Part shown: positions 8,164 through 34,495 of the stretch, piece by piece
How positions within the stretch are numbered: the first letter of the stretch is position 1
How the letters are laid out: the number at the start of each line of letters is the position of its first letter
Virus record (IMG/VR): IMGVR_UViG_3300045988_016831
Direction: 5' to 3' (one strand)
Source of the DNA: a virus
DNA length: 43,153 nt
Position numbers and translations under genes: made by a program
Notes under the pieces: model-generated
Told to the model about the DNA's origin: nothing
What the model saw: the letters and a program-made list of their open reading frames with translations, nothing else
The model's database searches: none

Positions 8164-9294
8164 ATGGATGTTGTGAATCTCAAGATTAAGGACTTGAAGC
8201 CTTACGAGAAGAATCCACGGAAGAACGATGGTGCTGTCGAATATGTGGCGAATAGCATTAAGGAGTTCGGATTCAAGGTTCCTATCGTGGTTGATAAGGA
8301 TAATGTCATTGTGGCCGGACACACACGCTATAAGGCGGCGAAAAAGCTGGGGCTGAAAGAAGTCCCGGCTATCGTTGCAGATGACTTGACAGATGAACAG
8401 GTCAAGGCCTTTCGATTGGCTGATAATAAGGTGGCAGAGCAGGCCGAATGGGATATTGATCTCTTGGGTGAGGAACTTTCTGACATATTGGATATTGACA
8501 TGGAGGACTTCGGCTTTTCTTTTTCAGAGGAAGATGTGGAAGTGGTGGAGGATGCTCCCGTAATAGATCCGAAAAAAGACCCTGTTACGAAACTTGGAGA
8601 TATGTGGAAAATGGGGGGGCATCTTCTACTGTGCGGAGATAGCACCAATATCACTGACGTGGAAAGGCTTATGGGCGGAGAAAAAGCTGACATGGTATTC
8701 ACAGATCCGCCTTACGGGTACGAGTACCAAAGTAATAGCAGAGGAGAGAAATTTGAGGTACTGAAGAACGATGACAAGATCCTCGATTTCTTTCCAAATA
8801 TTCAGATGGTGTGCAATGGTTTTGTATTCATATGCACCACATGGAAAGTACTTGATAAGTGGCTTCCGTTATTCAAAAAATACCATAATCTTACAAATAT
8901 GATTATATGGAGCAAAGGTGGCGGAGGCATTGGCGATCTGGCGCATACATTCGCCACCGATTATGAAGTTATCCTTTGCTCAAATAACGGGAGAGAAATC
9001 ACAGGCAAGCGAATCGGATCTGTATGGGCGATAAAAAAGGATTCTGGCAACAGGTATGTACACCCAACGCAGAAGCCAGTGAAGCTGTCTGAATTTGCGA
9101 TACGGAACACCACTGAAAGGGGGGAAATTGTCCTTGATCTGTTCGGTGGTTCTGGATCTACGTTGATAGCATGCGAGCAGCTTGATAGGCGCTGCAGGAT
9201 GATGGAGTACGACCCTATATACTGTGATGTCATCGTGGAAAGATGGGAACAATTTACAGGAGAAAAAGCGGAGCTTGTCAGCGGGAATGAATAA
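8164..9294 (+). CDS. ParB-like nuclease domain fused to an amino DNA methyltransferase
   Basis: LKPYEKNPRKND...AGHTRYKAAKKLG (ParB N-domain), FTDPPYG, HPTQKPVKL and DLFGGSGST. Confidence 0.85.
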   Translation: MDVVNLKIKDLKPYEKNPRKNDGAVEYVANSIKEFGFKVPIVVDKDNVIVAGHTRYKAAKKLGLKEVPAIVADDLTDEQVKAFRLADNKVAEQAEWDIDLLGEELSDILDIDMEDFGFSFSEEDVEVVEDAPVIDPKKDPVTKLGDMWKMGGHLLLCGDSTNITDVERLMGGEKADMVFTDPPYGYEYQSNSRGEKFEVLKNDDKILDFFPNIQMVCNGFVFICTTWKVLDKWLPLFKKYHNLTNMIIWSKGGGGIGDLAHTFATDYEVILCSNNGREITGKRIGSVWAIKKDSGNRYVHPTQKPVKLSEFAIRNTTERGEIVLDLFGGSGSTLIACEQLDRRCRMMEYDPIYCDVIVERWEQFTGEKAELVSGNE

Positions 9295-9316: not shown

Positions 9317-10864
9317 ATGGCGAACGAAAAAAACTTAGTGCCACAAAGCGAACGAACAAAGAGCGAACAAAGAGAAATTGCAAAAAAAGGCGGAATTAAA
9401 TCTGGTCAGGTTCGCCGTCAGAAAAAGACACTTTCCGACCTTGCAAAAATGATAGCTGACAACCCGGCCCCGGATGCCGCCAGACGAAAGCTGGAACAGA
9501 TAGGCATAGAAGCCGAGGATGCCAGCAACAACGCTGTAATCGTGGCTTCTGTGTACTCTAAGGCCGTCAAGGGCAATATGCAGGCCGTTGAAAAGTGGGA
9601 ACAGCTCGTAGCGGAGACCAAGGAAGATGCCGGGAAGTATGAGCTGCCCGCCCGGGTGCTTGGTAAGGCGTTCGTGGATATCAACAGGCAGATCCGCCCT
9701 AACATGGAATATGTGTTTGAGGGCGGACGTGGCGGTCTGAAATCCTCTTTCGTGTCGTTGAAAATCATAGAGCTGATTAAGAACAACCCGCAGATGCACG
9801 CCTGTATCACTCGTCAGGTGGCCGGAACGCTGAAAGATTCCGTGTACGCTCAGATGAAATGGGCTATCCATGAGCTGGAGCTGGACGAGGAGTTCAACTG
9901 CAAGGTGTCGCCGCTGGAGATTATCTACATCAAGACAGGACAAGTAATCTACTTCCGAGGTCTGGACGATGAAACGAAGCTGAAATCCATCAAGCCGCCA
10001 TTTGGCTATATCGGTATTCTCTGGAAAGAGGAGAAAGACCAGATGAAGGGCGACGCCCAGGAGCGATCGGTTAATCAGTCCGTGCTCCGTGGTGGTAATG
10101 AATCATATGATTTCTCGTCCTATAATCCGCCAAAGAGCAAGAGCAACTGGGTACACCGCATTAAGCTCAAACCGAATCCGAAGCGTGTCATTCATCATTC
10201 CTGTTACACCGAAGCTCCGCCGGAGTGGTTAGGCCAGAAGTTCATTGATGACGCGGAGCACCTGAAAGAGGTCAACCCGGAAGCCTATGAGCATGAATAC
10301 CTGGGCGTAGCGAACGGAGACGGCGGCAATGTGTTCGAGTATATTGAACTCCGAGAGATTACAGACGAAGAGATCGTCCAGATGGACAAGATATACCAGG
10401 GCGTAGACTGGGGCTGGTATCCTGACCGATACGCTTTTGTGCGCGTCTACTATGACCATGCACGGGAGACTCTGTACTTCATTGACGAGATTGGGGAAAA
10501 CAAGAAAGCGAACAGTTACACGGCGGCGAGAATCAAGGAACGCGGATATGATGACTATGCGATTATCTGCGACAGTGCGGAGCCAAAGTCAGTAGCTGAC
10601 TACCGAGACGAGGGACTACCCGCCAGAGGAGCAGAAAAAGGCCCCGGAAGCGTCGAATACTCCATGAAGTGGCTGCAAGGAAAGAAGCTGGTCATGGATC
10701 CACGCCGTACACCGGAAGCCTGCAAAGAGTTCACAGAGTACGAGTATGACCGGGACAAGGATGGAAATGTAATCAGCGGATACCCGGACAAGAACAATCA
10801 CTTCATCGACGCAACACGATACGCAACAGAGCCGATATGGAAGAGAAGGGGAAGCAGCGCATAA
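9317..10864 (+). CDS. terL: Terminase large subunit (PBSX-type) with ~110-aa basic N-terminal extension
   Basis: Walker-A-like GGRGGLKSS, later nuclease-region acidic motifs, and position directly before the portal. The N-terminus KGGIKSGQVRRQKK resembles small-terminase N-termini. Confidence 0.8.
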   Translation: MANEKNLVPQSERTKSEQREIAKKGGIKSGQVRRQKKTLSDLAKMIADNPAPDAARRKLEQIGIEAEDASNNAVIVASVYSKAVKGNMQAVEKWEQLVAETKEDAGKYELPARVLGKAFVDINRQIRPNMEYVFEGGRGGLKSSFVSLKIIELIKNNPQMHACITRQVAGTLKDSVYAQMKWAIHELELDEEFNCKVSPLEIIYIKTGQVIYFRGLDDETKLKSIKPPFGYIGILWKEEKDQMKGDAQERSVNQSVLRGGNESYDFSSYNPPKSKSNWVHRIKLKPNPKRVIHHSCYTEAPPEWLGQKFIDDAEHLKEVNPEAYEHEYLGVANGDGGNVFEYIELREITDEEIVQMDKIYQGVDWGWYPDRYAFVRVYYDHARETLYFIDEIGENKKANSYTAARIKERGYDDYAIICDSAEPKSVADYRDEGLPARGAEKGPGSVEYSMKWLQGKKLVMDPRRTPEACKEFTEYEYDRDKDGNVISGYPDKNNHFIDATRYATEPIWKRRGSSA

Positions 10865-12306
10865 TGGGACTGATATCAACAATTAGAAGGTGGATAAGTA
10901 TGTTATTCAAAAGCCAAGCAGAAAAAGACTTTCAGATTACCGCCCCGGATCTTTCAGAGATGGATGCCGTGGTGAGCACCTGTGCCAACATATACGCGGG
11001 CCGTCCGCTGTGGGTGAACGGGAAAGACGGGGTTAAGACCATCAACTTCGCCAAGTCCTTATGTTCCGAAACAGCCCGGCTCACGACCCTTGCAATCGGT
11101 GTGACCATTGACGGTAGCGCAAGGGCAGAGTGGCTCCAGCAGCAGATTGATAAGTCATATTTCCAGATTCGCCACTGGGTAGAGTATGGATGCGCTTATG
11201 GTACGGTGTACATCAAGCCTAATGGCCAGACCCTGGACGTATTCACACCGGGGGATGTACTTCTGGTTGACTATGATAACTTGGGCGTTAAGGGTATCAT
11301 ATTCAAGGACACATACACCGAGGGCGACGAGCGCTATACACGCCTTGAATATCACAGATTCGTGCCTGTGGATAACGAGGGCTATGAGCCGTACATCATT
11401 ACCAATAAGGCTTACGTATCCCGGAAAGAGGACAGCATCGGCAAACCGATACCACTGGAGAAAACCAGATGGGCCGGGCTGATGGAAGAAACACCGCCGA
11501 TTCTCAAGGGAGACGGTACCAGACTGGACGGCCCCATGTTCGGTATGTTCAGAACCCCGCAGGCCAACAATGTTGATATGAGTGTGCCGACGGGCCTGCC
11601 GATATTCAGAGAAGCCATCGAGGAGCTGAAAGACCTTGACACGGCATACAGCCGGAACGCCGGCGAGATCTTCGACAGCGAAAAGATTATCCTTGCGGAC
11701 GATACTCTGATGATGCCGTCCGGCACGAGTTTTAAGAATACAACGGAAGCCACGAGAGAGCAGACACGAAAAGATATGAAGCTCCCGCACTATGTCAAGA
11801 ATGTATTTGGTAACGGTACGGACTATTTCTATCAGGAAATTAACCCGCAGCTCAATACAGATGTTCGGCTGGCTGGAATTAATGCTCTGCTGTCCCAGAT
11901 TGGATACAAGGCCGGATTCAGCAACGGGTATTTTGTATTCAATGAGAAATCCGGGATGGTGACAGCTACACAGGTAGAAGCAGACGACCGCCGGACGATT
12001 CAGCTTATCAAGGATGTTCGAGATAAACTGGAGGACTGCCTGAATGGTGTAATCTATGCACTCAATGTATTTGCCGACCTGTACGGTCTGGCCCCGGTGG
12101 GTACTTACGAAACAACTTACGACTTCGGTGATATCACGTACAACCGGGAAGAGGATAGGGCCAGATGGTGGCAGTACGTGACACAGGGTAAGGTTCCGGC
12201 CTGGATGTACTTTGTGAAGTTTGAGGGTATGTCCGAAGAGGAAGCGAAAGCAATGGTGGAAGAAGCTCAGCCAAAAGAAGAGCCGGGGCTTTTCGTAGAG
12301 GAGTGA
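10864..12306 (+). CDS. Portal protein (SPP1 gp6-like)
   Basis: About 480 aa. TAATG overlap with terL. Followed by a minor capsid/head morphogenesis gene. Confidence 0.75.
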   Translation: MGLISTIRRWISMLFKSQAEKDFQITAPDLSEMDAVVSTCANIYAGRPLWVNGKDGVKTINFAKSLCSETARLTTLAIGVTIDGSARAEWLQQQIDKSYFQIRHWVEYGCAYGTVYIKPNGQTLDVFTPGDVLLVDYDNLGVKGIIFKDTYTEGDERYTRLEYHRFVPVDNEGYEPYIITNKAYVSRKEDSIGKPIPLEKTRWAGLMEETPPILKGDGTRLDGPMFGMFRTPQANNVDMSVPTGLPIFREAIEELKDLDTAYSRNAGEIFDSEKIILADDTLMMPSGTSFKNTTEATREQTRKDMKLPHYVKNVFGNGTDYFYQEINPQLNTDVRLAGINALLSQIGYKAGFSNGYFVFNEKSGMVTATQVEADDRRTIQLIKDVRDKLEDCLNGVIYALNVFADLYGLAPVGTYETTYDFGDITYNREEDRARWWQYVTQGKVPAWMYFVKFEGMSEEEAKAMVEEAQPKEEPGLFVEE

Positions 12307-12402
12307 TAGGATGACCCACGCAAGCCGAAAGGATGGTGATCCGCACATCTCCCGGCCACTGGGTTAAGTGGTGAGTAATCAGTCAGGAGGGAGTGATACA
12401 AT

Positions 12403-13632
12403 ATGCTTGAACCGGAGTACCTTAGGCGGGTATCAGAGGGCAGTGAGCAGATTGCGTCCTCCCTCCATGATTATATTATCCGGCAGATTATACGCAGAAT
12501 CATGCTCCGCATCGGGAGGGGCGAGGAATACCTGCTCACATCATCGGACGTGTGGCGGATTAAGACCTTGCAGGAATCGGGGTATCTTCTGGAAGATATT
12601 ACCGCGGAGATTGCCAAGTACACCAAGTGGCAGAAGAAGGAGATCAAGGCCGCGATGGAAGAAGCTGGGATTAAGGCCCTGGAAGCAGACAATAAGGTAT
12701 ACCAGGCCGCCGGACTATCCCCGGAACCGCTCACGCAATCCCCGGCGCTTATCCGGCTTATGGAGCGGAATATGCTGGTCACGGTCAACGAATGGACGAA
12801 TTACACTCGAACCACGGCACAGGTGGCACAGGCGCTGTATATTGCTGAATGCGACATTGCTTATAATAAGGTGATGACCGGAGCGGTGAGCTATACGCAG
12901 GCCGTCAGAGAAGCCGTAGACACGATAGTCAAGGACGGCGTGGTAGTCCGGTATCCCACCGGACACAAGGATACCATAGAGACAGCCACGGCCCGTGCGG
13001 TGCGAACCGGCATAGCGCAGGCCACCGGGGATATATGCCTTAAGCGCATGGAAGAAATGGATTGGGATATTGTGCTGGTGTCCGCTCACGTGGGAGCCCG
13101 GACAGGTGACGGCGGGCAGAACCCGGGAAATCATGCGTGGTGGCAAGGCCAGTACTTTTCCAGGACTGGGAAAGATAAGCGCTTCCCGGACTTCAAGGAA
13201 TCCACCGGGTACGGGACTATAGAGGGACTGTGTGGTGTGAATTGCCGCCACAGCTTCGGAAGCGGAACGGGAGAAGCCAAGGATAACCCATACAAGGAGC
13301 TCATGACCGCGGATAACTATAGAGTGGAACAGGCGGAGAAGCGGCAGAGAGAGCTTGAACGCCGTATCCGCAAGACCAAGCGGGCGGTTATGGGATTGCA
13401 GGAAGCTGTAGACGGGTGCAAGGACGAACAGGTTAAGTTCTCCATGCAGCAGGAGCTTGACCGCAAATCTTACCTCTTACAGAGCCAGAATAAGGCGTAT
13501 AACGAGTATTGCAAGGACAACAATCTCCAGCCACTGGCCGACAGGCTTAGAATAGCACAATGGGGCCGGGAGCAGGCCGCGAGAGCGCGGGGAGCTGCAC
13601 GGCGATATGAAAACGCAAAAGGAGCAGATTAA
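12403..13632 (+). CDS. Minor capsid / head morphogenesis protein (Phage_min_cap2 / SPP1 gp7-like)
   Basis: MLEPEYLRRVSEGSEQIASSLHDYIIRQI N-terminus and position after the portal. AGGAGGG before the ATG. Confidence 0.7.
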   Translation: MLEPEYLRRVSEGSEQIASSLHDYIIRQIIRRIMLRIGRGEEYLLTSSDVWRIKTLQESGYLLEDITAEIAKYTKWQKKEIKAAMEEAGIKALEADNKVYQAAGLSPEPLTQSPALIRLMERNMLVTVNEWTNYTRTTAQVAQALYIAECDIAYNKVMTGAVSYTQAVREAVDTIVKDGVVVRYPTGHKDTIETATARAVRTGIAQATGDICLKRMEEMDWDIVLVSAHVGARTGDGGQNPGNHAWWQGQYFSRTGKDKRFPDFKESTGYGTIEGLCGVNCRHSFGSGTGEAKDNPYKELMTADNYRVEQAEKRQRELERRIRKTKRAVMGLQEAVDGCKDEQVKFSMQQELDRKSYLLQSQNKAYNEYCKDNNLQPLADRLRIAQWGREQAARARGAARRYENAKGAD

Positions 13633-13964
13633 TGTACTTATACGAACTGGGAAAAGCATTCATGACTATATGCGTGGGGATTTCTACGGTGGGAGCCGCC
13701 GGGACGATCATCTACAAGGCATACACAGAAGCCAAGAAGCCACAGGAAGACACCAACAAGCGGCTGGACAACATCGAGAAGCGGTTGGACGGCATAGACC
13801 AGAAGCTGACCAATGATTATACCCAGATTAATCAGAACCGGGATGACATGAATCTGCTTATGCGCAGCATGTTCGATCTCATTGAGAACAAGATTACCGG
13901 AAACAATGTAGAGGGGCTAAAAAAAACCAGAGACGATCTGATTCACGCCTTAACAGACAAGTAA
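13632..13964 (+). CDS. Small membrane-anchored coiled-coil protein
   Basis: TAATG coupling. One N-terminal TM segment (AFMTICVGISTVGAAGTIIY) followed by a heptad-like region. Confidence 0.55.
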   Translation: MYLYELGKAFMTICVGISTVGAAGTIIYKAYTEAKKPQEDTNKRLDNIEKRLDGIDQKLTNDYTQINQNRDDMNLLMRSMFDLIENKITGNNVEGLKKTRDDLIHALTDK

Positions 13965-13975
13965 GAGGGATTCGC

Positions 13976-14230
13976 TTGAAAATCTACGATTTTACCGCGC
14001 CGGAGCTGGCCTATTATAAAAAGTTCTGCAATTTCGATTCCAGGGAAGCTGCCCTGTATGATTTACGGGCGAAGAATATTCCTCTAGAAGAGTGCGCGGA
14101 GATACTGGGATACGAGAATATCCGCAAGTTGAGCCTGCGGGTGAATCGAAAGATTGTGAAAATGACAGATACCCGCCGGATGCGGGAATGGATAGATACA
14201 GTATACTGGAAAAGTGAACTGAACAAATAA
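13976..14230 (+). CDS. Hypothetical protein, possible HTH (84 aa, TTG start)
   Basis: ORF followed by a clear terminator. The sequence ...PLEECAEILGYENIRKLSLRVNRK is HTH-like. Confidence 0.4.
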   Translation: MKIYDFTAPELAYYKKFCNFDSREAALYDLRAKNIPLEECAEILGYENIRKLSLRVNRKIVKMTDTRRMREWIDTVYWKSELNK

Positions 14231-14261
14231 GGAACTTTTCAGAGCTTTCCTGGGCATTTAT

Positions 14262-14286
14262 AGAGCCTGTGGACGGCTCTTTTTTT
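14262..14286 (+). terminator. Rho-independent terminator inside the head module
   Basis: agagcc-tgtggac-ggctct hairpin followed by T7. Confidence 0.7.
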
Positions 14287-14408
14287 GTGCGAAAATATAG
14301 GCATGAACAGATATGACCCTTATGCGGATCCAGATCCGCAGGACGAGATCGAGATACCGATAAGGACAGATTACCGTGATATTATCGCGGCAGTGATGGA
14401 GGGCAAGC

Positions 14409-14831
14409 ATGAACGGATATATGCCTTACATGATGAACATGGACGCAATGGCGGCAGAACAGGCGGCCTTGCAGCAGCGAATCCAGCAGATGGAGCAGCA
14501 GAGACAGCAGTATCAACCCCAGCCGCAGGCTCCGGCGCAGAATGTGAACTGGATACAGGTGGCCGGAATTGAGGGGGCCAAGAATCAGATTGTACAGCCA
14601 GGGCAGACTGCGTGGATGATGGACAACAATAGCCCTGTATTCTACGTCAAGTCCGTAGATGGCATGGGCAGTGCCACATTCAAGGCTTTTCGATTTGAGG
14701 AGATTTCCCCGGACTGCATGGCTCCGCAGCCACAGCAGTCCCAGCCGGACTATGTGACCCGCGCTGAATTTGAAGACCTGCTCCGAAAACTGGGAGAACC
14801 TACACTGGAAAAGGAGGATAAGACCTTATGA
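14409..14831 (+). CDS. Hypothetical protein with Met/Gln-rich N-terminus
   Basis: GGAGGG before the ATG. N-terminus MNGYMPYMMNMDAMAAEQAALQQRIQQMEQQRQQYQPQPQAPAQ, then a globular-looking C-terminal half. Confidence 0.6.
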   Translation: MNGYMPYMMNMDAMAAEQAALQQRIQQMEQQRQQYQPQPQAPAQNVNWIQVAGIEGAKNQIVQPGQTAWMMDNNSPVFYVKSVDGMGSATFKAFRFEEISPDCMAPQPQQSQPDYVTRAEFEDLLRKLGEPTLEKEDKTL

Positions 14832-15082
14832 ATCCATTAATGGCAATGATGGGCGGTGGCCGGAACAATCCGATGGGTATGCTCGGGCAGGCTATGGGAA
14901 TGATTAATCAGGTGAGACAGTCCGGGAACCCGCAAGCCATGATGCAGCAGATGGCTGCGCAGAACCCGAACGTAAAAAAGGCTATGGATATGTGCCAAGG
15001 GAAGATCCCTGAACAGGTATTCATGGATATGTGCCGTCAGAACGGCATAGACCCCGGACAAATAACCGGGATGCTGAAATAG
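14828..15082 (+). CDS. Met/Gln/Asn-Pro-rich small protein (84 aa)
   Basis: ATGA coupling and AAGGAGG. Low-complexity NPxxMMQQM-type repeats. Confidence 0.55.
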   Translation: MNPLMAMMGGGRNNPMGMLGQAMGMINQVRQSGNPQAMMQQMAAQNPNVKKAMDMCQGKIPEQVFMDMCRQNGIDPGQITGMLK

Positions 15083-15136
15083 CTATCTCGTCGGTGCGCA
15101 ACGACTTGATAAATATAAGATAAGGAGATAACCAAC

Positions 15137-15823
15137 ATGACAGATGGAATGGGCTTAACAGCGGCTGACGTGGCTGCTGTAACCAGAAACGACAATGATG
15201 GCATGTGGGGCAACGGTGGATGGTGGATCTGGATCATCCTGATTGCGTTCCTCTTCCCGATGATGGGCGGATGGAATCGCAACGGCGTTGAGACAGGCGT
15301 ACAGGACAACTTCATTTCTGATGAATTCGTCAAGCGCGATATCTTCAATACCAACCAGAACGTAAGCAACACAGCTTGTCAGACCCAGAGAGACATTCTG
15401 GAAAATCGGTACACCAATCAGCTAGGATTACAGCAGTTAGGGGCACAGTCCCAGCAGTGCTGCTGTGAGACGCAGAAAGAAATCCTTGAGAATCGCTACG
15501 CTGCTGCTCTGCAGGCGCAGGCCGCACAGGCACAGATTGCATCTTGCTGCTGCGATATTAAGGAGACCATTCTGGCGGATGGTCAGGCGACCAGACAGCT
15601 GATGCAGGAAAATACCATCCAGAGCCTGCGGGATAAGCTGGCAGACCGGGATAGAGACCTTCAGACCGCATACTGGCAGATTTCTCAGGTCAACCAGACC
15701 AAGAATATCGTGGATGCAGTACGTCCGACCCCGATTCCGGCTTTCCTGACTTGCAGCCCGTACTTCGCATATAACAGTGGTTCCTTTTACGGGGGCGGCT
15801 GTTGTAGTGGAAACGTGCTGTGA
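15137..15823 (+). CDS. Membrane-anchored protein with three Cys-cluster repeats
   Basis: AAGGAG before the ATG. TM segment GGWWIWIILIAFLFPMMGGW. Repeats CQTQRDILENRY / CCCETQKEILENRY / CCCDIKETIL and a C-terminal GGGCCSGNVL. Confidence 0.6.
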   Translation: MTDGMGLTAADVAAVTRNDNDGMWGNGGWWIWIILIAFLFPMMGGWNRNGVETGVQDNFISDEFVKRDIFNTNQNVSNTACQTQRDILENRYTNQLGLQQLGAQSQQCCCETQKEILENRYAAALQAQAAQAQIASCCCDIKETILADGQATRQLMQENTIQSLRDKLADRDRDLQTAYWQISQVNQTKNIVDAVRPTPIPAFLTCSPYFAYNSGSFYGGGCCSGNVL

Positions 15824-16032
15824 CCAACCAGGAGCTGACCGTTCTAGATCTTCTTAACCTGTTCGGAGTCTTTCTGCAGGTGCTTAATTACCAGAGCGAC
15901 CTATCGCAGGAAAGCAACGCAGACCTCGCAAGGCACCTGCAGGAGCAGGACAAGAAGTATCTGGATCGGATTCTGGAAAATCAGAACAAAATAATTAGCA
16001 TGTTGGAAGAATCCATATCTACCACAAGGTAG
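15820..16032 (+). CDS. Hypothetical protein (70 aa, GTG start)
   Basis: GTGA coupling with the upstream gene. Followed by a terminator. Confidence 0.45.
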   Translation: MTNQELTVLDLLNLFGVFLQVLNYQSDLSQESNADLARHLQEQDKKYLDRILENQNKIISMLEESISTTR

Positions 16033-16040
16033 TCTTGCGC

Positions 16041-16072
16041 AAGGGGTAGGCGTGGCCTGCCCCTTATTTTTT
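16041..16072 (+). terminator. Rho-independent terminator
   Basis: aaggggtaggc-gtg-gcctgcccctt (11-bp stem with one G-U pair) followed by aTTTTTT. Confidence 0.75.
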
Positions 16073-16088
16073 AAAGAAGGAGAAAAAT

Positions 16089-16517
16089 ATGCTTAATGTA
16101 ATTGCAAAGACGGCACAGACCGTCGATACCAATCAGAACATCATATTCACAGATACGCGCGTCAAATCTCGGCGCTGTGGCTGCCAGAGCGGATGGCTTA
16201 GTCACATCGAGGGAAGCGGCCTGTTCACTATCACCAATCGTGGAAATCAGCCGATGGCGGTGGAACTTCAGTTCAACGCAAATGTGACAGCTGCGGCCGC
16301 TGGAGCAACCACTCTTACGCTTGAGCTGAACGGAGAAGCGATTGGGGGGACAGAGATGGATTATACCGTAGTTACTGCGGATGTGTACCAGAACGTAAGC
16401 GCGGATACGCTTATCCCGGTTCCGGCTGGAACTTCCTTAACTGTATCGGTTGGGAACATTTCAACTGGAGCGGTTCTTGTCAAAGATGCGAACCTTATCA
16501 TTAAGAAGGTAGCTTAG
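16089..16517 (+). CDS. BclA-C / C1q-TNF-like beta-sandwich protein (candidate decoration protein)
   Basis: AAGGAG before the ATG. The pattern ...LTLELNGEAIGGTEM...VSADTLIPVPAGTSLTVSVGN...ANLIIKKV resembles BclA C-terminal-domain proteins of Firmicutes. Confidence 0.4.
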   Translation: MLNVIAKTAQTVDTNQNIIFTDTRVKSRRCGCQSGWLSHIEGSGLFTITNRGNQPMAVELQFNANVTAAAAGATTLTLELNGEAIGGTEMDYTVVTADVYQNVSADTLIPVPAGTSLTVSVGNISTGAVLVKDANLIIKKVA

Positions 16518-16528
16518 GAGGTGATCAC

Positions 16529-17131
16529 ATGATTACCTTCAAGAGCAAGGCAGACGTGCAGACAGTAGAGGATGTATACGCCGAAGTCAATGCGCGGTAT
16601 ATCGCCGCGCTGATGTTCCACGACCAGATGGCGGACTACTTCGACTTTCTCGGTCTGCATGGATATAAGCGGCTCCACGAACATCAGTATTATGAAGAGA
16701 GCCGGGAGCGCCGGAAACTGAATCGGTACTATATCAATCATCATGGGCGACTTATACTTGATAGATTTACAGGAACGGTGAACATGATACCGGACGGTTG
16801 GATTACTGCCAATCGAATCAGTGTAGGTCGCAGCACTAAGCAGAAAGCCGTGGAGGATGGATTCAACGCTTACAGGGAGTGGGAAGCAGAGACAAAAAAG
16901 CTCTATGAGAACTATTCCAAGAAGCTCCGAGACCTCGGGGCGGTTTCTGACGCTGTATTCCTGGAATCTATGGTAGAGGACGTGAGTGAAGAGCTGAAAC
17001 AGCTGGAAAGAATCATCACTGACCTGATATCCGCCGGGTACGATATGGTCTATGTGGTGGAAAGCCAGAAGAAACTGCACGATAAGTATAAGGCAGTAGA
17101 AAAGAGGTGGGATAATGAGCGAACTGATTAG
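16529..17131 (+). CDS. Ferritin-like four-helix-bundle protein (divergent metal ligands)
   Basis: TAGGAGG before the ATG. YIAALMFHDQMADYFDFLGLHGYKRLHEHQYYEESRERRKL and DAVFLESMVEDVSEELKQLERII align by eye with ferritin helices A/B and C/D. Confidence 0.35.
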   Translation: MITFKSKADVQTVEDVYAEVNARYIAALMFHDQMADYFDFLGLHGYKRLHEHQYYEESRERRKLNRYYINHHGRLILDRFTGTVNMIPDGWITANRISVGRSTKQKAVEDGFNAYREWEAETKKLYENYSKKLRDLGAVSDAVFLESMVEDVSEELKQLERIITDLISAGYDMVYVVESQKKLHDKYKAVEKRWDNERTD

Positions 17132-17540
17132 AGTGTTGGAAAAGCAGCTGGAGATTGAAAGTACGGCGGCAAAGAATAAGCTGACCGCGGCGAACCTCGA
17201 CAGCATAGCAAAACTGACCACGGCGATCTGCAATCTGAAATGCATGGAGAATGAAAGCTGGGGCCGGGAGATTGTCGCAGAAGCGACGGAGACGGCAATC
17301 AGTAAGTACTCCAACGGAAAGTATGACCACAATATTGACGCCCTGTATGACGCGTACATCGCGGCAAAAAAGTCATATCAGGAAATCGGAGACCAGGGAC
17401 ACCGGGACAAACTCATGGAATCGGTCGGCCGCCTGATGGTAGAGGTCTACGATATGCTTTCGGCAATGGTCATTGATTCCGACTTTCAGGATGAAAAGGC
17501 CGAAATTATGAAGCGGATCCGGATGCTTGCAGATGGGTAA
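17115..17540 (+). CDS. All-helical hypothetical protein (141 aa)
   Basis: ORF with AGAGGTGG before the ATG. Overlaps the upstream gene by 17 nt. Confidence 0.5.
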   Translation: MSELIRVLEKQLEIESTAAKNKLTAANLDSIAKLTTAICNLKCMENESWGREIVAEATETAISKYSNGKYDHNIDALYDAYIAAKKSYQEIGDQGHRDKLMESVGRLMVEVYDMLSAMVIDSDFQDEKAEIMKRIRMLADG

Positions 17541-17792
17541 AATGTGGTGCCACAACATATATGCCATATGTAGTATGATGGGAGTGTGAAAAGTTATGAC
17601 TTTAAGCCGAAAGGCTTTGCCGATAGTTTCCCTCCTTTCAAGGATATGCGTCCTTAAAAGAAACCAGAAAACAATGTCCACTTACCATTGCTCTGGGAGG
17701 TTGAAAAGCGGATGCAATTTCCGACGCATATCATCGGTTCATCTCGTCGACCGAACACCTCATATCTAATAGGGCGGGCAATACCCGCCCAA

Positions 17793-17865
17793 GCCCCTGT
17801 AGCTCAACTGGTAGAGTAACTCCCCTGTAAGGAGCTGGTTCCGGGTTCGAATCCTGGCGGCGGCT
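17793..17865 (+). tRNA. tRNA-like gene, best read as tRNA-Thr(UGU) with non-canonical C33
   Basis: 73-nt hand-folded cloverleaf. Acceptor gcccctg/cggcggc has 6 of 7 pairs. D arm gctc-aactggta-gagt. Anticodon arm actcc-cctgtaa-ggagc. T arm ccggg-ttcgaat-cctgg. No encoded CCA. Confidence 0.55.
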
Positions 17866-17971
17866 GTTGCAATTCGATAATCTCAGGTGGTGGATTTTGT
17901 CGCAACCACGCGCCCTACGGGCTAAAAGAGATGCAGGGAAGGCGACGCCTGCGGGATTGTTGAATTGCTAT

Positions 17972-18041
17972 CGGAATATATCATCAATGGCAGATGTGGA
18001 GGGTCGCGCCCTCTGTCCTGGTTCGATTCCGGGTGTTCCGA
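17972..18041 (+). ncRNA. Degenerate tRNA-like element (T arm and acceptor intact, aberrant D/anticodon region)
   Basis: Acceptor cggaata/tgttccg, T arm cctgg-ttcgatt-ccggg and a GG-containing D loop. The central region folds as an 8-bp hairpin (gtggaggg/ccctctgt) and the variable region is too short. Confidence 0.35.
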
Positions 18042-18120: not shown

Positions 18121-18768
18121 ATGCAGAACTATGAGCAGATTCTTACGGAGCTTGGTATTGAGATTCCGGAGGACAAAAAAGCAGATCTGAAAAAGAAATT
18201 CGACGAGAACTACCGCACAAAGGCTGATTATGATAAGGCTATCACCAAGAGGGACGAATACAAGACCTCGCTGGATGATGTGCAGAAGCAGCTCGAAGAG
18301 TTCAAGGATGTGGATGTGAATGACCTGAAAACCCAGATCAGCACGCTGACCACACAGCTTGCGGACGAGAAGAAAGCGCATGACGATGACACCCGCAAAG
18401 CGGCACTGGAAAAGACGGTTGACGAGTTTTTCTCTTCTGTGGACGAGAAAGGCGAGAAGGTATACGACTTCCTCAACGATATCACAGCCAACCACTACCG
18501 GGAGGAGCTTGCCAAGGCTCTTGATTCTGATTCCGCAAAAGGAAAATCCATCGCAGATATCTTCAAAGGTATGATTACCGACGCGGACGGAAAGCAGAAA
18601 GCCGGAATTTTCGTGGATAAGCAGCAGGCAGCAGCCCAGCAGAATGCAGCGAAGTTCACTAAACCCGCACAGCAGAGTGGCGCTTCCGGACAGAAGTACA
18701 CTATGTCCCAGCTTATGAAGATGAAGAATGAGAATCCAGATCTGGATATCTCACAGTATATGCAGTAA
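18121..18768 (+). CDS. Scaffolding protein (Phage_GP20-like)
   Basis: Acidic/basic coiled-coil protein immediately upstream of the major capsid gene. N-terminus MQNYEQILTELGIEIPEDKKADLKKKFDENY is typical. Confidence 0.75.
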   Translation: MQNYEQILTELGIEIPEDKKADLKKKFDENYRTKADYDKAITKRDEYKTSLDDVQKQLEEFKDVDVNDLKTQISTLTTQLADEKKAHDDDTRKAALEKTVDEFFSSVDEKGEKVYDFLNDITANHYREELAKALDSDSAKGKSIADIFKGMITDADGKQKAGIFVDKQQAAAQQNAAKFTKPAQQSGASGQKYTMSQLMKMKNENPDLDISQYMQ

Positions 18769-18852: not shown

Positions 18853-20025
18853 ATGGCATTATTTGACCAGAAAAATTTTAACGGCGAGGTTTTTGGGGCC
18901 TATGTTGACCGTGTACCGAACCTCAACAGAAATGAGCTTCTGAAGTCTGGAGCTATTGTCGAGAAGCCCCAGTACGCGACCATGCTGCCGGATCAGACTG
19001 GCGGCAACTATATCACCATCCCGATTAAGGCAAGAATCGGCGGTACCGCTGATAACTATGACGGCTCCACCAACATCAAAGCGGATTCCCGTGAGACTTA
19101 TACACACGGAAGAATCGTTGTGGGCCGTGCTCATGGATGGACAGAGAAGGACTTCTCCTCTGACATCACCGGAGAGGACTTCATGCCCGCAGCGGAGGAA
19201 GTGGCTGAATACTGGGACGACATCGACCAGGCGACACTGCTGTCCGTCCTGAAAGGAATCTTCTCCATGACCGGAACCGAGAATAAAAAGTTCGTGGACG
19301 GCCACACCTACGATGTATCCATGTCTGCAACAGACACCGGATTCAAGGAGACCACTCTGAACAATGCAGTTCAGCAGGCACTTGGCGATAACAAGGGCAA
19401 GTTCAGCCTGGCAATCATGCACTCCAAGATTGCTACTGACCTCGAAAACCTCAAACTGCTGGCGTACATGAAGTATAACGATGGAGAGGGAATCGAGAGA
19501 GACCTGACCTTGGCTACACTGAATGGCCGCGCTGTCCTCATTGATGACAATATGCCGACTACAGCAGTAGCCGCAAAGTATGTCAAGGCAGCACAGACAG
19601 ATCCGGGGTCCTTGAAAGTGGCAACTCCTGGAACTGGAACCGGAGAAGTTCCGAAGTCTTCCGTAACCGGAGATATCGCAGATGCAGCTGATGGCGATTA
19701 TGTCGTACTGCTTCCGGCAGGCACAGCATACACAACCTACGTTCTGGGCGAGGGAGCAATCGAATACACCAACTGCGGTGCAAAGGTTCCCTATGAGATG
19801 GATAGAGATCCGGCAAAGAATGGCGGCGAGGATACCCTGTATTCCAGACAGAGAAAGATCTTCTCTCCCTACGGTATCTCTTTCAAGGCTTCAAGCATCA
19901 TCTCCCCGACAAAGGAGCAGCTTGAGACAGCGGCGAACTGGGAGCTGGCAAACAACAACAGCGGTACTTCCAAGAAGTACTTCCCGGTTAAGGCTATCCC
20001 CATCGCACGTATTATCACCCGGTAA
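18853..20025 (+). CDS. Major capsid protein
   Basis: 390 aa, directly after the scaffold gene and followed by the head-tail connector gene. Confidence 0.75.
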   Translation: MALFDQKNFNGEVFGAYVDRVPNLNRNELLKSGAIVEKPQYATMLPDQTGGNYITIPIKARIGGTADNYDGSTNIKADSRETYTHGRIVVGRAHGWTEKDFSSDITGEDFMPAAEEVAEYWDDIDQATLLSVLKGIFSMTGTENKKFVDGHTYDVSMSATDTGFKETTLNNAVQQALGDNKGKFSLAIMHSKIATDLENLKLLAYMKYNDGEGIERDLTLATLNGRAVLIDDNMPTTAVAAKYVKAAQTDPGSLKVATPGTGTGEVPKSSVTGDIADAADGDYVVLLPAGTAYTTYVLGEGAIEYTNCGAKVPYEMDRDPAKNGGEDTLYSRQRKIFSPYGISFKASSIISPTKEQLETAANWELANNNSGTSKKYFPVKAIPIARIITR

Positions 20026-20536: not shown

Positions 20537-20677
20537 ATGAATCTTCTGAAAAGAGTTTTCTGCGACCATTCCAAGCAGAAGTATATTGGCTCATATCTGG
20601 AGCAAGACGAACGCGGACACAGATGTACGCGGCATATCTGGCAGTGTAAGAACTGCGGGAAAAGAATATGGAGGTAA
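20537..20677 (+). CDS. Small Cys/His-rich protein (46 aa; below the ORF-track cutoff)
   Basis: ATG 20537 lies 2 nt after the upstream stop. Translation MNLLKRVFCDHSKQKYIGSYLEQDERGHRCTRHIWQCKNCGKRIWR. Confidence 0.4.
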   Translation: MNLLKRVFCDHSKQKYIGSYLEQDERGHRCTRHIWQCKNCGKRIWR

Positions 20678-20681
20678 TATC

Positions 20682-21011
20682 ATGGATGCATTATTGACCA
20701 ATATGACTATGGTTCTGGCAGTGATTGGCGCTCTAGCCTTTTGCGTGTCAGTGATTACACAGGTATTCAAGGGCGTTGGCTTCCTGTCGAAGATTCCGAC
20801 AGATGCGCTTGTATTCGTCCTGTCAATCGGTATCACTGTAGCGGCTTTTGTGGCCTATATGCAGTATATCAATATGGTGATTCTGTGGTACATGATTCTG
20901 GCGGCTATTATGGCCGGATTCATCGTGGCGTTTGTGGCCATGTATGGCTGGGAAAAACTGACGGATTTGTGGAAGAGGATGAGCAAGACGGATACTTCCG
21001 GGAAATGGTGA
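20682..21011 (+). CDS. Three-TM membrane protein, holin-like
   Basis: ATG 20682 after GGAGG. The sequence VITQVFKGVGFLSKIPTDALVFVLSIGITVAAFV resembles phiLC3/Hol44-type holins. Confidence 0.4.
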   Translation: MDALLTNMTMVLAVIGALAFCVSVITQVFKGVGFLSKIPTDALVFVLSIGITVAAFVAYMQYINMVILWYMILAAIMAGFIVAFVAMYGWEKLTDLWKRMSKTDTSGKW

Positions 21012-31309: not shown

Positions 31310-32095
31310 ATGGCAATCATGGTATCTTCCGCACGCTCGGACGAGCGTGGCAAATACTCCGGCGGAAAGCCGGGAGACCAGAAACAGAATTCAAAGACCA
31401 ATGACACCCGGGGCGAGGTGAGTATGCAGGCAATGTATACCCACCGGAAAGGGTGGTATATCCTGCGCCCGAAAAAGGTATCACACGCTGACGCAATCGC
31501 AGAGCTGGGCATTAAGGCGGCAAACAATCCAAACATTGGCTACAGTCAGTCGGACAAGCTGGGCGTGGTTAAGCATGGCATTAGCACCAAGGTCAAGACC
31601 AATGCGGACTGCAGTTCCCTGGTGCGGCAGGCGGTAAAAGAAGCGACCGGGAAAGACCCGGGCAACTTTACCACAGCCAACGAGGCCAAGGTATTGGTCG
31701 CCACGGGACTGTTTACAAAGATTACTTATGTAAACCAGTCAAAGACCCCGGTCTATAATGGTGATATCCTTGTCACCAAGACCAAGGGGCATACCGTCAT
31801 CGTGGTATCCGGCAAACCCCGCCCACGTGCCACAGTCGGCAATCCGTACCCGGTGCCGACCAGAACCATTAAGCGGACAAGACCCTTAATGAAAGGCGAT
31901 GATGTCGGCTGGGTGCAGTATCACCTTGTCCGACTTGGATGCATGGCTGAGAAGAACGAGAACGGCGAGAGCAATATTGATAAGAAGTTTGGAGATATTT
32001 CTGAGGCTGGCGTGTATGAGGCACAGAAACGGTACGGCGTGCACCAGGACGGTATTGTGGACGCTGCTATGGTTGATATTTTGAGATGGAATTGA
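31310..32095 (+). CDS. Endolysin: Cys/His peptidase-like N-domain plus PG_binding_1 C-domain
   Basis: NADCSSLVRQ (Cys) and TKGHTVIVVSG (His). C-terminus MKGDDVGWVQYHLVRLG...KKFGDISEAGVYEAQKRYGVHQDGIVD is a peptidoglycan-binding repeat. Confidence 0.7.
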   Translation: MAIMVSSARSDERGKYSGGKPGDQKQNSKTNDTRGEVSMQAMYTHRKGWYILRPKKVSHADAIAELGIKAANNPNIGYSQSDKLGVVKHGISTKVKTNADCSSLVRQAVKEATGKDPGNFTTANEAKVLVATGLFTKITYVNQSKTPVYNGDILVTKTKGHTVIVVSGKPRPRATVGNPYPVPTRTIKRTRPLMKGDDVGWVQYHLVRLGCMAEKNENGESNIDKKFGDISEAGVYEAQKRYGVHQDGIVDAAMVDILRWN

Positions 32096-32947: not shown

Positions 32948-34495
32948 TTAAATCCTCAATTTTACTGACATTCTAAACGGTACATGACTCTTCGCTTCTT
33001 CGTGCGTCCTTGAATATTCGATTCGTTCTATTACAGTTTTCAGAAAAGCGTTCTTTTCTTTGGCAGACAGCGAAGTGCTTTCTATGGCCTTAATCGCATC
33101 GGAAAGCATGGCAATCTTTTTTTGAAGATGTTCCCTCTGTGGTTTCTCGCTCCGCAACTGTTCCAGAGCTTTTTCAGCATTCCCTTTGCTTTCCGTATTT
33201 TTCAGATTCAACTTGTCGAAGATCTCCTTCGGCATTTCTCCATCCGCATACTTTTCCCATAGATGTAACTCTTTCAGTTCTAGCGTTTGCACCTGCTTCT
33301 CAAGCATCTGGATCTGGGCTTCTTTTTCTCGACCATCGCTTTCTTCTTCGAGCTCTATCTTGCAATCCTCAATAGAGCAGAGCAAGGATGATACTAATGC
33401 CTGCGAATATTCGGAAAATAGGCAAGAAGCAGCTTCGCAATTTGTAAGACCAGAACATACAAGTCGAGGATTATATTTGAACTTTCCATTCCGGAGCCCC
33501 GTGTGGTACATCATGGCTCTTCCGCAGATACCGCAATACGCAATTCCAGCAACAGGGTTGACCTGCTCATAGCTATCACGCTTCCGACTCCGGTTTTTGA
33601 GCAGCTCTTGGACGTGAACAAAAACATCATGGTCTATCATCCGCGGGTGCCGCGCTGGGAAAAGCTCATAGTCTTTTGAGCGCGGCCTGGATTTGACAAC
33701 TTCCCCGTCTTTCACGCGTGAGACATCGCCACGCCTTTTCCAGGCAATCATCTGGTCGTAGTGGTCATTCTTGGCAATATCGAGGAGCATCTGAACCGTC
33801 CAGGGCTTCCCGGCTGGTGAATTTGCTCCCATAGCCTTTAATTCTTTTGCCACAGTATATGGCAGCACGCCTGCGTTAAGTCGGTCGAAGATATACCGGA
33901 CTGTTGGCGCATCGGGGCCGAAATCCAGTGTAGGCCGCTTCCTCTTCCCATCCTGCACAGTTACACGGACAAAACCGAACGGCGGCTTTGAAGCGATATA
34001 CCATCCATCCTTGACAGACTGATATTTTCCACGGGCAAGAATTTTTTTCGTATATTCCAGATATTCATTTCCTCTCTTAAGTTCCCTCTCAAAGAAATCC
34101 CGGTCGTAGTCATCCTCAATATCATATATCTTTTGAGGTGTGATCACCTTGGTATGGGTATACCGCAGTATCTTAATCAGTCGCCCAGCGTCCTCTAGGT
34201 CTCCTCTGGATAATCGCTGAACCTCTACCACCAGCACGCCCTTAATACCAGGTGATTCCACCTGACGGAGAACCTTGCAGAATTCCGGGCGATCTGCTAT
34301 GGTCTCGCCGGATACGACCTCCCGATAAAAGTTCTTTGCCGGGATATCGTGGACAAGGTTCCGGCCTATCCACTCCCGGATAATCTCTTCGTGCTTTTGA
34401 AGCACATCCTCTACCGATAAATATGGGTCATCGGATCTGGATTTTCGGAGATAGACAAGGATCTCCTCTGGTTTGAATTCGTAAGATTGATACAC
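32948..34495 (-). CDS. int: Large serine recombinase (integrase)
   Basis: The resolvase-type N-domain motif VYLRKSRSD carries the catalytic Ser. Recombinase domain, zinc ribbon CGICGRAM...C, and C-terminal coiled coil. GTG start with AAGGAGG upstream. Confidence 0.9.
   Translation of the reverse strand: MYQSYEFKPEEILVYLRKSRSDDPYLSVEDVLQKHEEIIREWIGRNLVHDIPAKNFYREVVSGETIADRPEFCKVLRQVESPGIKGVLVVEVQRLSRGDLEDAGRLIKILRYTHTKVITPQKIYDIEDDYDRDFFERELKRGNEYLEYTKKILARGKYQSVKDGWYIASKPPFGFVRVTVQDGKRKRPTLDFGPDAPTVRYIFDRLNAGVLPYTVAKELKAMGANSPAGKPWTVQMLLDIAKNDHYDQMIAWKRRGDVSRVKDGEVVKSRPRSKDYELFPARHPRMIDHDVFVHVQELLKNRSRKRDSYEQVNPVAGIAYCGICGRAMMYHTGLRNGKFKYNPRLVCSGLTNCEAASCLFSEYSQALVSSLLCSIEDCKIELEEESDGREKEAQIQMLEKQVQTLELKELHLWEKYADGEMPKEIFDKLNLKNTESKGNAEKALEQLRSEKPQREHLQKKIAMLSDAIKAIESTSLSAKEKNAFLKTVIERIEYSRTHEEAKSHVPFRMSVKLRI

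Follow-up and report, generated by a model that had tools for sequence, protein, structure and literature searches.

Why should nine genes stand between two head genes that are neighbours in a related phage? The question is raised by IMG/VR virus record IMGVR_UViG_3300045988_016831, whose whole stretch of 43,153 nucleotides (nt), called the window here, was analysed. The window (~43 kb) represents a temperate siphophage, with a serine integrase gene (32948-34495, minus strand), CI-type helix-turn-helix (HTH) repressors and an endolysin gene (31310-32095). In its late operon, nine plus-strand open reading frames (ORFs), o1 to o9, lie at 13632-17540 between a Phage_min_cap2 gene and a Phage_scaffold gene. 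A description made from the letters alone, hereafter the sequence-only reading, had taken them for an island of orphan genes, whose products might be capsid decoration or internal proteins or else a lysogenic-conversion cassette. The block proved to be an old insertion made up of several parts. The reading that we favour, with a probability of about 0.55, is that this composite region of an SPP1-like head module holds a moron-like cassette of accessory genes whose products act on the cell envelope, and not head parts.

The block is an old insertion relative to a related head module

In the window, the late genes follow the order terminase (9317-10864), portal (10837-12306), minor capsid, o1-o9, a non-coding stretch of 580 nt, scaffold and major capsid. 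The head module of Blautia phage Montmirail is related to it, with amino acid identities of 57% for terL, 56% for the portal, 56% for the minor head and 48% for the scaffold protein. There, the portal gene is followed by the minor head gene, a gap of 135 nt and the scaffold gene, and no match to any of o1-o9 was found in this phage. The block is an insertion relative to this related phage, and the expectation that the minor capsid gene is normally next to the scaffold gene is supported by the Montmirail order. Montmirail is one of the prophages that were induced and then recovered from the OMM12 virome; since its head module lacks o1-o9 and its DNA reached the virome, a closely related head module is encoded without the block genes.

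The insertion is neither recent nor composed of orphans, and it has been maintained by selection. The order of the nine genes between the minor capsid and scaffold genes is fixed in all 86 clade loci that could be analysed (loci carry L numbers below), so that presence in related phages, which the sequence-only reading had left to comparison, holds for the whole clade and fails for Montmirail. The clade has Lachnospiraceae as hosts (a prophage of Coprococcus comes MSK.16.63, and metagenome-assembled genomes of Marvinbryantia and Clostridiales). Median ratios of nonsynonymous to synonymous divergence (dN/dS), determined for o1-o9 against 15 relatives, range from 0.06 to 0.24, with synonymous sites near saturation. 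All nine ORFs are therefore coding and under purifying selection, exactly as they had been delimited before. The least diverged proteins of the region are o5 and o7, with dN values of 0.115 and 0.119, compared with 0.228 for the portal and 0.235 for the minor capsid protein. Two types of major capsid protein, with ~25% or ~80% identity to the one of the window, occur within the clade, and the block is kept with either.

As for public data, an o7 relative is encoded by 168 IMG/VR contigs, and Dulem virus 35, from lemur gut, has a variant of the block at the same site with all genes annotated as "hypothetical protein". A megablast search of the region against GenBank phages returned solely 40-nt matches within the RNA region, and with blastn one unannotated faecal contig of 7 kb was matched.

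The core of the cassette is a mobile unit

Outside the clade, the core o3-o4-o5 was found as a mobile unit at very different genome positions in distant phages of Bacillota, and homologues of o3, o4, o5 and o6 together with o7 or o8 co-occur outside head modules. In Clostridium perfringens phage HMD-PC1 the cassette lies among early genes, with an anti-repressor gene on one side and Gam/recombinase genes on the other (o5 38% identical, E 2e-35; o6 1e-11; o8 9e-11), and in Dulem virus 39 it stands 3' of replication and integrase genes (o5 4e-34, o6 4e-22, o7 1e-19). Other loci have it between putative tape-measure and baseplate genes, as judged by ORF sizes and order (L098, L103), 3' of putative tail-fibre genes (L096), next to ORFs resembling holin and endolysin genes (L100, L101), or at prophage ends abutting host genes (L110 and L092, the latter a Phascolarctobacterium contig). 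Homologues of o4 adjoin o5 in L082, L083, L092, L094, L096-L099, L102 and L103, and o6 homologues were found in L082 (1e-11), L083 (4e-22) and L100.

In most cases, genes for a small beta-rich protein and for one or two helical proteins come next after the core, and an o2-like HTH gene usually lies upstream (5' of the cassette in L083, L092, L096, L098, L100, L101, L103 and L110). The slot 3' of o5 is filled either by an o7-type protein or by a cysteine-containing beta-rich protein; hhalign found no relation between o7 and this second family, which has no PDB profile match. The helical slot, taken by o8 and o9 in the window, often holds a DUF7841 protein elsewhere.

The o5 family reaches furthest. 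A profile search recovered 2,820 clusters at 50% identity with E <= 1e-3, among them 1,345 with E <= 1e-10. The protein is found in sipho-like, sheathed-tail and crAss-like phages. Members occur in many crAss-like phages, in the cultured Bacteroides phage C3_41T2LP, in csAssE-Sib and in viruses assigned to Methanomassiliicoccales. In Bacteroidota-associated phages the o5 gene is accompanied by genes for a DUF7841 protein, a beta-rich protein and an o3-like protein, the last recognised by eye and not detected with the o3 profile; examples are cr125_1 (L105, 3864-6448), where the DUF7841 protein is annotated as "RNA polymerase sigma factor/ubiquitin-like protein", and C3_41T2LP (L106, 4563-7332). 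With an o5 family of this size, an order fixed in the clade and a core that recurs in distant phages, the genes cannot be called orphans, as the sequence-only reading had done. The distribution of the family also argues against a function bound to one type of envelope, against a role in sporulation and against a set position in a single type of virion.

Flanking signals travel with the cassette

Two strong terminators had been read within the block, starting at 14262 and 16041, and both were recovered by a terminator scan (stem-loops at 14262-14280, followed by T6, and at 16041-16065). Overall the scan was not enriched, with 10 sites compared with 7.4 +/- 3.0 expected from shuffles, and thus the support for the two terminators, T1 and T2 (Table 1), comes from their conservation. 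A hairpin with a T run is present at the place of T1 in most clade members, with differing stem sequences, and in distant cassettes too. Each of the 82 clade loci with an o6 gene shows a hairpin at the o6/o7 junction, and in 53 of them it passes the filter (dG <= -8 plus T4). The T2 hairpin is kept in 31 distinct sequences, with compensatory GC-to-AU changes at two pairs. The GC-rich hairpin after o5/o6 precedes the ribosome-binding site of the next gene. Most of the distant cassettes examined have a comparable hairpin behind o5 or o6 as well, in about half of these cases with a T run.

On the 5' side of o3, the members of the clade share an order of signals: a GATACTTTT..GAKACTTT motif, usually a hairpin with a T run, and a TGnNAWAAT box. 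The first of these, ACTTTTCAGAGCTTTC in the window, stays beside o3 regardless of how much cargo is inserted between o2 and o3, and is a candidate operator or activator site. The last, an extended -10-like box, was read by eye as TGCGAAAAT in the window; relatives have TGCCATAAT, TGCGATAAT or TGCAAAAAT, and an identical TGCGAAAATATAGG box is found in the distant locus L093. In distant cassettes a hairpin, a T run and TG(T/C)GC(A/G)AWAAT follow each other in an equivalent arrangement, so the flanking signals travel with the cassette. The box is a candidate promoter. A sigma-K-type reading of the -10 element (CATAnnnTA) was tried as well; it fits some relatives and not the majority, and was rejected as unsupported.

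Between this box and o3 there is a small ORF (MNRYDPYADPDPQDEIEIPIRTDYRDIIAAVMEGKHE..., 14303-14408, frame open to 14572), which was seen in the closest subclade of the window only. It has almost no leader and overlaps the o3 start in a different frame. By eye, the differences to L004, L006 and L088 are mostly synonymous in its frame, and it may be a real short gene.

The block is a composite of four parts

The block is not one unit and consists of four parts, namely an operon tail (o1-o2), a cargo hot spot, the cassette o3-o9 and a slot for RNA and tRNA genes (Table 1). Its first two genes close the portal/minor-capsid operon, with the o1 start overlapping the stop codon of the minor capsid gene and o2 following within ~11 nt. 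Junction lengths were compared over the 86 loci. Overlaps of 4 nt are found at o3/o4, o5/o6 and o8/o9, and only the o2-o3 and o4-o5 junctions are elastic, the other gene junctions being tight or overlapping.

The o2-o3 gap ranges from an overlap (-10 nt) to 2,263 nt and its cargo varies: small proteins of the HTH or ribbon-helix-helix (RHH) type, "GGRGG" proteins, a second o2-like gene, a tRNA-Met (L084, 8943-9018) and a Tad2-like gene of the anti-Thoeris family (PF11195; L086, 8182-8727). The o4-o5 gap (15083-15136 in the window) contains a minus-strand gene of ~258 aa in six of the 86 loci, including L043, L075-L077 and L079, which splits the otherwise tight core. Provisionally, and going by its sequence, this insert can be taken for a homing endonuclease of the HNH/AP2 type. 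A second hot spot was seen at the portal/minor-capsid junction (12307-12402), which is empty in the window and holds up to 4.2 kb in relatives; going by ORF sequence, its cargo seems to include Ig-like repeat proteins, tail-fibre-like proteins, a lysozyme-like protein, a tyrosine integrase and a small multi-pass membrane protein.

The gap between o9 and the scaffold gene measures at least 248 nt in every locus and serves as a slot for RNA genes, and the RNA-gene region of 580 nt that had been proposed for the window indeed contains a RAGATH-21 RNA, a tRNA-Thr and a skipping-rope RNA. The skipping-rope motif has been described before (PMC5737381). It and RAGATH-21 are described motifs of unexplained function, and here they flank the tRNA-Thr gene just 5' of the scaffold gene. 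RAGATH-21 occurs at the equivalent place in four of seven relatives, the tRNAs found there vary (Thr, Asp, Met, Tyr, Ser, Ile), and a GP20-b motif occupies the slot in two relatives, L062 and L090. A further element was called by ARAGORN as "tRNA-Ala(CGC)"; the Rfam tRNA model has no match at this place (17972-18041) even at E <= 1, and it may be a degenerate tRNA-like element. In Montmirail, the short gap between the minor head and scaffold genes holds a T-arm-like remnant, GGTTCGATTCC.

Table 1. Features of the block and its borders in the window (coordinates as positions of the 43,153-nt stretch)
Feature	Position	Strand	Description
Left border, minor capsid protein	12403..13632	+	SPP1 gp7 / Phage_min_cap2 type; PF06152, E 7e-73; phrog_581
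o1	13632-13964	+	110 aa; N-terminal hydrophobic segment (residues 9-27), coiled-coil-like C-terminal part
o2	13976-14230	+	84 aa; stand-alone HTH protein of sigma-70 region 4 / LuxR-GerE type
Upstream motif ACTTTTCAGAGCTTTC	14234..14249	+	Unique in the window; clade form GATACTTTT..GAKACTTT at the equivalent place
T1, intrinsic terminator	14262..14286	+	Stem AGAGCC/GGCTCT, 7-nt loop TGTGGAC, then T6
Extended -10-like box TGCGAAAAT	14288..14296	+	Directly after the T run; read by eye
o3	14409-14831	+	140 aa; core cassette gene; Gln-rich N-terminal helix, small beta domain, C-terminal helix
o4	14828-15082	+	84 aa; core cassette gene; 19% Met, 13% Gln; no hydrophobic segment; 4-nt overlap with o3 stop
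o5	15137-15823	+	228 aa; central cassette protein
o6	15820-16032	+	70 aa; borderline hydrophobic N-terminal helix, charged C-terminal helix; 4-nt overlap with o5 stop
T2, terminator or attenuator	16041..16072	+	Divides o3-o6 from o7-o9; 11-bp stem with 7 GC, then ATTTTTT; 16 nt 5' of o7 start
o7	16089-16517	+	142 aa; stand-alone beta-sandwich of BclA_C / C1q-TNF type; no signal peptide; phrog_20016
o8	16529-17131	+	200 aa; ferritin-like helical bundle; phrog_17879
o9	17115-17540	+	141 aa; overlaps o8 end
RAGATH-21 RNA	17643..17732	+	RF03097, 77.3 bits (gathering score 70.3)
tRNA-Thr (UGU)	17792..17866	+	ARAGORN and Rfam concur
Skipping-rope RNA	17877..17960	+	RF02924, 50.8 bits (gathering score 36.7)
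tRNA-like element, "tRNA-Ala(CGC)"	17972..18041	+	ARAGORN only
Right border, head scaffolding protein	18121..18768	+	PF06810, E 1.5e-11
Major capsid gene	18853-20025		SPP1 gp13-like

Products of the block

Scans of the nine proteins against Pfam, NCBIfam, PHROGs and PADLOC gave only sub-threshold matches or PHROG families of "unknown function" (best PADLOC match E 0.011, none over a meaningful length), no signal peptide was found in any product, and a literature search for the PHROG numbers and for DUF7841 returned no papers. This agrees with the statement of the sequence-only reading that the set is not a known system. Its descriptions of the single products mostly held as well, and with family profiles o2, o7 and o8 could be assigned at the level of the fold.

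The central protein o5, which had been described as a membrane protein with CCC clusters, has one hydrophobic segment and two CCC triplets. Its sequence is laid out as an acidic N-terminal tail, a Gly/Trp-rich hydrophobic segment (residues 27-45), a helical rod of ~135 residues with the CCC motifs and a Gly/Tyr/Cys tail, with a conserved RPxPxPAY..SPY motif. The protein has 10 cysteines, counting those of the triplets, and C110, C139 and C222 are nearly invariant. No Pfam model and no PDB match were found, the profile giving only non-significant matches to influenza HA2 and to maquettes. Structure prediction, which had been suggested for these proteins, yielded models of low confidence: the AlphaFold2 model of o5, from an alignment of 66 sequences, has a pLDDT of 52 and a pTM of 0.17, and only helices, one hydrophobic and others long, and a tail predicted as disordered are seen in it, and that of o3 has a pLDDT of 56 and no fold match in the PDB at E <= 0.3 (Foldseek).

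The proteins o3 and o4 correspond to the Met/Gln-rich pair noticed before, although the composition differs between them, o3 having 15% Gln (for o4 see Table 1). The beta domain of o3 (residues ~45-98) is nearly invariant within the clade, and o3 matches phrog_21718 (E 1.5e-16), with 497 homologues. In the case of o4, a GIDPxxL-like motif precedes the hydrophobic segment in the Bacteroidota and archaeal-virus forms of o5, and it was considered whether o4 derives from an N-terminal domain that became separated from o5. The hidden Markov model of o4 finds no match in those forms and the idea was dropped, being only a lead.

In o1, reported earlier as a transmembrane and coiled-coil protein, a hydrophobic segment and a coiled-coil-like part are present. 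The gene is found in all 86 clade loci with a dN/dS of 0.11, and its matches in Pfam and PHROGs, to XhlA (0.008) and to an Rz-like spanin phrog (0.012), are below threshold. The HTH character proposed for o2 was recovered with the family profile, which matches region 4 of FliA (4e-6), VpsT (1.4e-5), GerE (3.2e-5), NarL (4e-5) and SigF. The window o2 alone has no Pfam match; the o2-like protein of L110 matches Sigma70_r4 and Sigma70_ECF. We consider o2 a candidate DNA-binding regulator of the cassette.

A beta-sandwich of the BclA-C or C1q kind had been suspected in o7. Its match to BclA_C (PF18573; E 3.5e-6, 27.4 bits) lies below the cut-off of 38, as do those of all six of nine family members that match. 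The o7 profile matches PDB 9H38, the C-terminal head of F-BclA, with E 4.5e-4 (residues 6-141 against 13-144). This head belongs to the tip fibrillum of endospore appendages in B. thuringiensis (PMC12357932). The alignment covers nearly the whole length of o7, but o7 lacks a collagen-like stalk, an exosporium leader and an N-terminal docking motif, its Pfam scores all stay below the gathering cut-off, it is encoded by a phage, and other cassettes fill its slot with an unrelated beta-rich protein.

Similarly, the ferritin-like bundle attributed to o8 corresponds to a full-length profile match to ferritins (1z4a, 6txj and others; E 4e-4 to 1e-3, positions 13-176 against 8-153), with the single sequence reaching E 0.21 against Pfam Ferritin. 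Residues E19, E57, E60, E119 and E155 align with ferroxidase ligands, so that carboxylates stand at most positions of the ferroxidase centre. In contrast to ferritins, the site histidine is replaced by Glu, the conserved Tyr is absent and there is an insertion of 30 residues; the likeness is one of sequence. For o9, no Pfam or PDB match was found, and hhalign gave a probability of 0.6% for a relation to DUF7841 (PF25223).

A moron-like cassette with a proposed role at the envelope

Insulation upstream, a -10-like box of its own and termination downstream give the cassette the layout of a moron. Morons are reportedly known from lambdoid and HK97-like phages, through the work of Juhala and Hendrix in 2000 and Cumby in 2012, and HK97 gp15 is said to be a superinfection-exclusion moron in the tail-gene region. 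As in morons, the block is extra DNA between genes that are adjacent in a relative, the cassette has a promoter-like box on one side and an intrinsic terminator on the other, and it lies in the late structural operon of a temperate phage and encodes a protein with a membrane-type hydrophobic segment. Unlike a moron of the HK97 gp15 type, it is a conserved unit of five to seven genes plus an HTH gene and not a single gene. It also differs from morons in being fixed in a whole clade and in having a core family that reaches crAss-like phages and archaea-assigned viruses, and its expression from the prophage is putative. The gap itself has a counterpart in SPP1, where the space from gene 7 to scaffold gene 11 holds genes 8-10, small ORFs with no assigned role. 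There, too, extra small genes fill this gap in a head module of this type; the block of the window is far larger and has transcription signals and RNA genes of its own, and the likeness is one of position only.

In the mechanism that we propose, o3-o6 would form a transcription unit insulated from the late operon, which could be expressed in the lysogen or on a schedule of its own, and o2 may control the cassette through the upstream motif. T2 would give o7-o9 and the capsid genes an expression level of their own, with a high ratio of o3-o6 to o7-o9. The abundant product would be o5, attached in or on the cytoplasmic membrane through its Gly/Trp-rich segment, oligomerising via the long rod and cross-linked by the conserved cysteines, with o3 and o4 as partners. 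The trimer-type beta-sandwich o7, the ferritin-like o8 and o9 would be accessories of lower abundance. The role might be an envelope-level benefit to the phage or the lysogen, for which, by analogy and with low certainty, the blocking of incoming phage DNA or membrane remodelling can be named. Superinfection exclusion is the best-known precedent for morons within structural operons (HK97 gp15).

Several observations weigh against this interpretation. The low confidence of the o5 model is one, and no positive-inside bias, from which a membrane topology could be read, was found in 366 members of the o5 family. Hydrophobic or secretion signals were detected among the products only in o1, o5 and o6, and if the o5 rod were extracellular, its link to cytoplasmic o7-o9 would be hard to see. 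The very strong conservation is unusual for superinfection-exclusion proteins. With regard to the signals, a consensus promoter scan did not call the box at 14288-14296 and no -35 box was found. In cr125_1, the one crAss-like locus examined, the o5 gene is tightly packed and has no flanking hairpins, so the moron frame is not universal. Moreover, the block genes share the orientation of the late operon, and with 16 nt between T2 and the start of o7, transcription of o7-o9 must depend on read-through from the genes before them; this would suit a role in the late operon equally well. Finally, many classical morons differ from their surroundings in G+C, whereas the block (0.48-0.52) does not differ from its flanks (0.49-0.56). 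Among the alternatives of the sequence-only reading, a lysogenic-conversion type of cassette is the best-fitting choice for o3-o6 with their bracketing signals.

Beyond the moron frame, there is a tentative and more far-reaching possibility, namely that the core, its beta-rich and helical partners and the HTH regulator form a so far unrecognised multi-protein phage system, shared horizontally among gut viruses of Bacillota, of Bacteroidota (including crAss-like phages) and those assigned to Methanomassiliicoccales. Such a system could be a cysteine-cross-linked, membrane-attached rod assembly with an activity outside the described classes, for instance an envelope-independent membrane barrier or a fusion-like device. 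The cassette is of a familiar kind, being accessory DNA with its own signals in a late operon, but no unit described so far corresponds to it.

Alternative readings

The other proposal of the sequence-only reading was that the products are virion accessory proteins, either head decoration or internal, ejected proteins. Spelled out, o7 would be a trimeric decoration and o5 an ejected protein that inserts into the membrane, both acquired by the SPP1-like head in this lineage. Much in the block would suit this, as its genes are co-oriented and tightly packed within the head module, its proteins are conserved to the same degree as capsid proteins or more, and, if the hydrophobic segments in o1, o5 and o6 are set aside, they have no secretion signal. 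Ejection proteins often carry such segments, and the C1q/BclA_C type of fold is typically trimeric. However, Montmirail shares the head module and does without all nine genes, and elsewhere the cassette is found among early and recombination genes, next to lysis genes, among tail genes and at prophage ends. The o5 family extends across unrelated particle types, including crAss-like phages and the Methanomassiliicoccales-assigned viruses, the block persists with either type of capsid protein, and it is difficult to see why stoichiometric head parts should have a frame of terminator and promoter signals. The weak matches of the single o7 sequence to phage chains named "decorating protein" (8frs_f, 9b40_K; E 0.05-0.09), which would have pointed in this direction, are not significant and vanish with the family profile. 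With these non-head positions, diverse particles and a relative without the block, the virion reading is the weaker one and we regard it as unlikely.

Less probable still is a lysis-related or fusion-type membrane device, in which o5 would aid the exit of the phage in the manner of an i-spanin or of a class I fusion subunit. The architecture of o5 is what suggests it: an N-terminal hydrophobic segment, a long helical or coiled-coil rod, conserved cysteines able to form disulfides and a Pro-rich C-terminal motif are shared with i-spanins of the lambda Rz type. In addition, the cassette adjoins genes annotated as holin and endolysin in cr125_1, a gene of the endolysin family in L110 and lysis-like ORFs in L100, L101 and L092, although such lysis-adjacent positions are classical positions of morons too. 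Yet o5 lies outside a lysis cassette, with the lysis genes of the window (30.9-32.1 kb) 14 kb away from the block, and shows no similarity to spanin families in the PHROGs and Pfam scans. It has no o-spanin partner: among 60 distinct o5 genes, no canonical lipobox was found in either alternative frame (0 of 120 frames), nor in the neighbours o4 and o6. Lachnospiraceae are expected to be monoderm and would not need a spanin. As to fusion, depositors labelled crAss-like o5 homologues as "spike protein/glycoprotein" or "outer capsid protein/viral fiber", labels that appear to rest on coiled-coil similarity only, and the many weak profile matches of o5 to HA2 (E 0.018-0.3) are not significant.

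A spore-surface or sporulation type of lysogenic conversion, with a GerE-like regulator driving coat- or exosporium-like proteins in the mother-cell cytoplasm, was suggested by the best solved match of o7, the F-BclA head from the tip of an endospore appendage, and by the GerE match of o2. The absence of a secretion signal outside o1, o5 and o6 would fit as well, and so would the biased composition (rich in Cys, Gln and Tyr, with Tyr/Gly/Arg-rich stretches in some partners elsewhere) and the occurrence of the Bacillota versions in lineages that include spore formers (Lachnospiraceae, C. perfringens phages). This reading was downgraded to very unlikely since the core family is found in crAss-like and Bacteroides phages and in archaea-assigned viruses; o5 with its beta-rich and DUF7841 partners occurs in phages of Bacteroides, in other crAss-like phages, in a Phascolarctobacterium prophage and in the Methanomassiliicoccales-assigned viruses, whose hosts do not sporulate. 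Moreover, no coat-family match reached threshold, and the -10-like box fits the housekeeping type at least as well as the sigma-K type.

Equally slight is the chance that the block is a system for defence or counter-defence situated in a phage hot spot. The unit is multi-gene, mobile and apparently transcribed separately, and the o2-o3 gap beside it carries the Tad2-like gene (L086) or, in other relatives, HTH/RHH-type genes. Against this, such variable cargo is not part of the conserved cassette, the PADLOC scan was negative, and the Pfam, NCBIfam and PADLOC scans matched no enzyme or nucleotide-binding family, so that the sole candidate for a catalytic centre is the metal site of the ferritin-like o8.

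Neighbouring genes

Some observations concern the genes around the block. The major capsid gene (18853-20025 in the window) is of one of two types within the clade, with the scaffold gene, the block and the flanking genes staying homologous, and this suggests that the capsid gene by itself was exchanged as a module. Further on, 20586-21011 lies among genes for head completion and head-tail joining and encodes a protein of 141 aa with several hydrophobic segments and no Pfam match, and this may be another accessory membrane gene within the late operon. Just 5' of the terminase gene, the product of 8164-9294 resembles, by its sequence, a ParB-like N-terminal domain fused to a DNA methyltransferase.

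Significance

The position of these genes within the head module is no evidence for a head function. Practical handles exist in the related prophage of C. comes MSK.16.63, and in cultured C. perfringens phages and Bacteroides phage C3_41T2LP, which carry cassettes. The two cargo hot spots and the RNA slot are places to look for counter-defence genes and for the function of RAGATH-21 and skipping-rope RNAs. If the favoured reading of a moron-like, envelope-acting cassette is true, a very common "hypothetical protein" block of gut phages, whose core family comprises thousands of clusters with no Pfam model and with inconsistent public labels, would be one coherent mobile unit with its own transcription signals.

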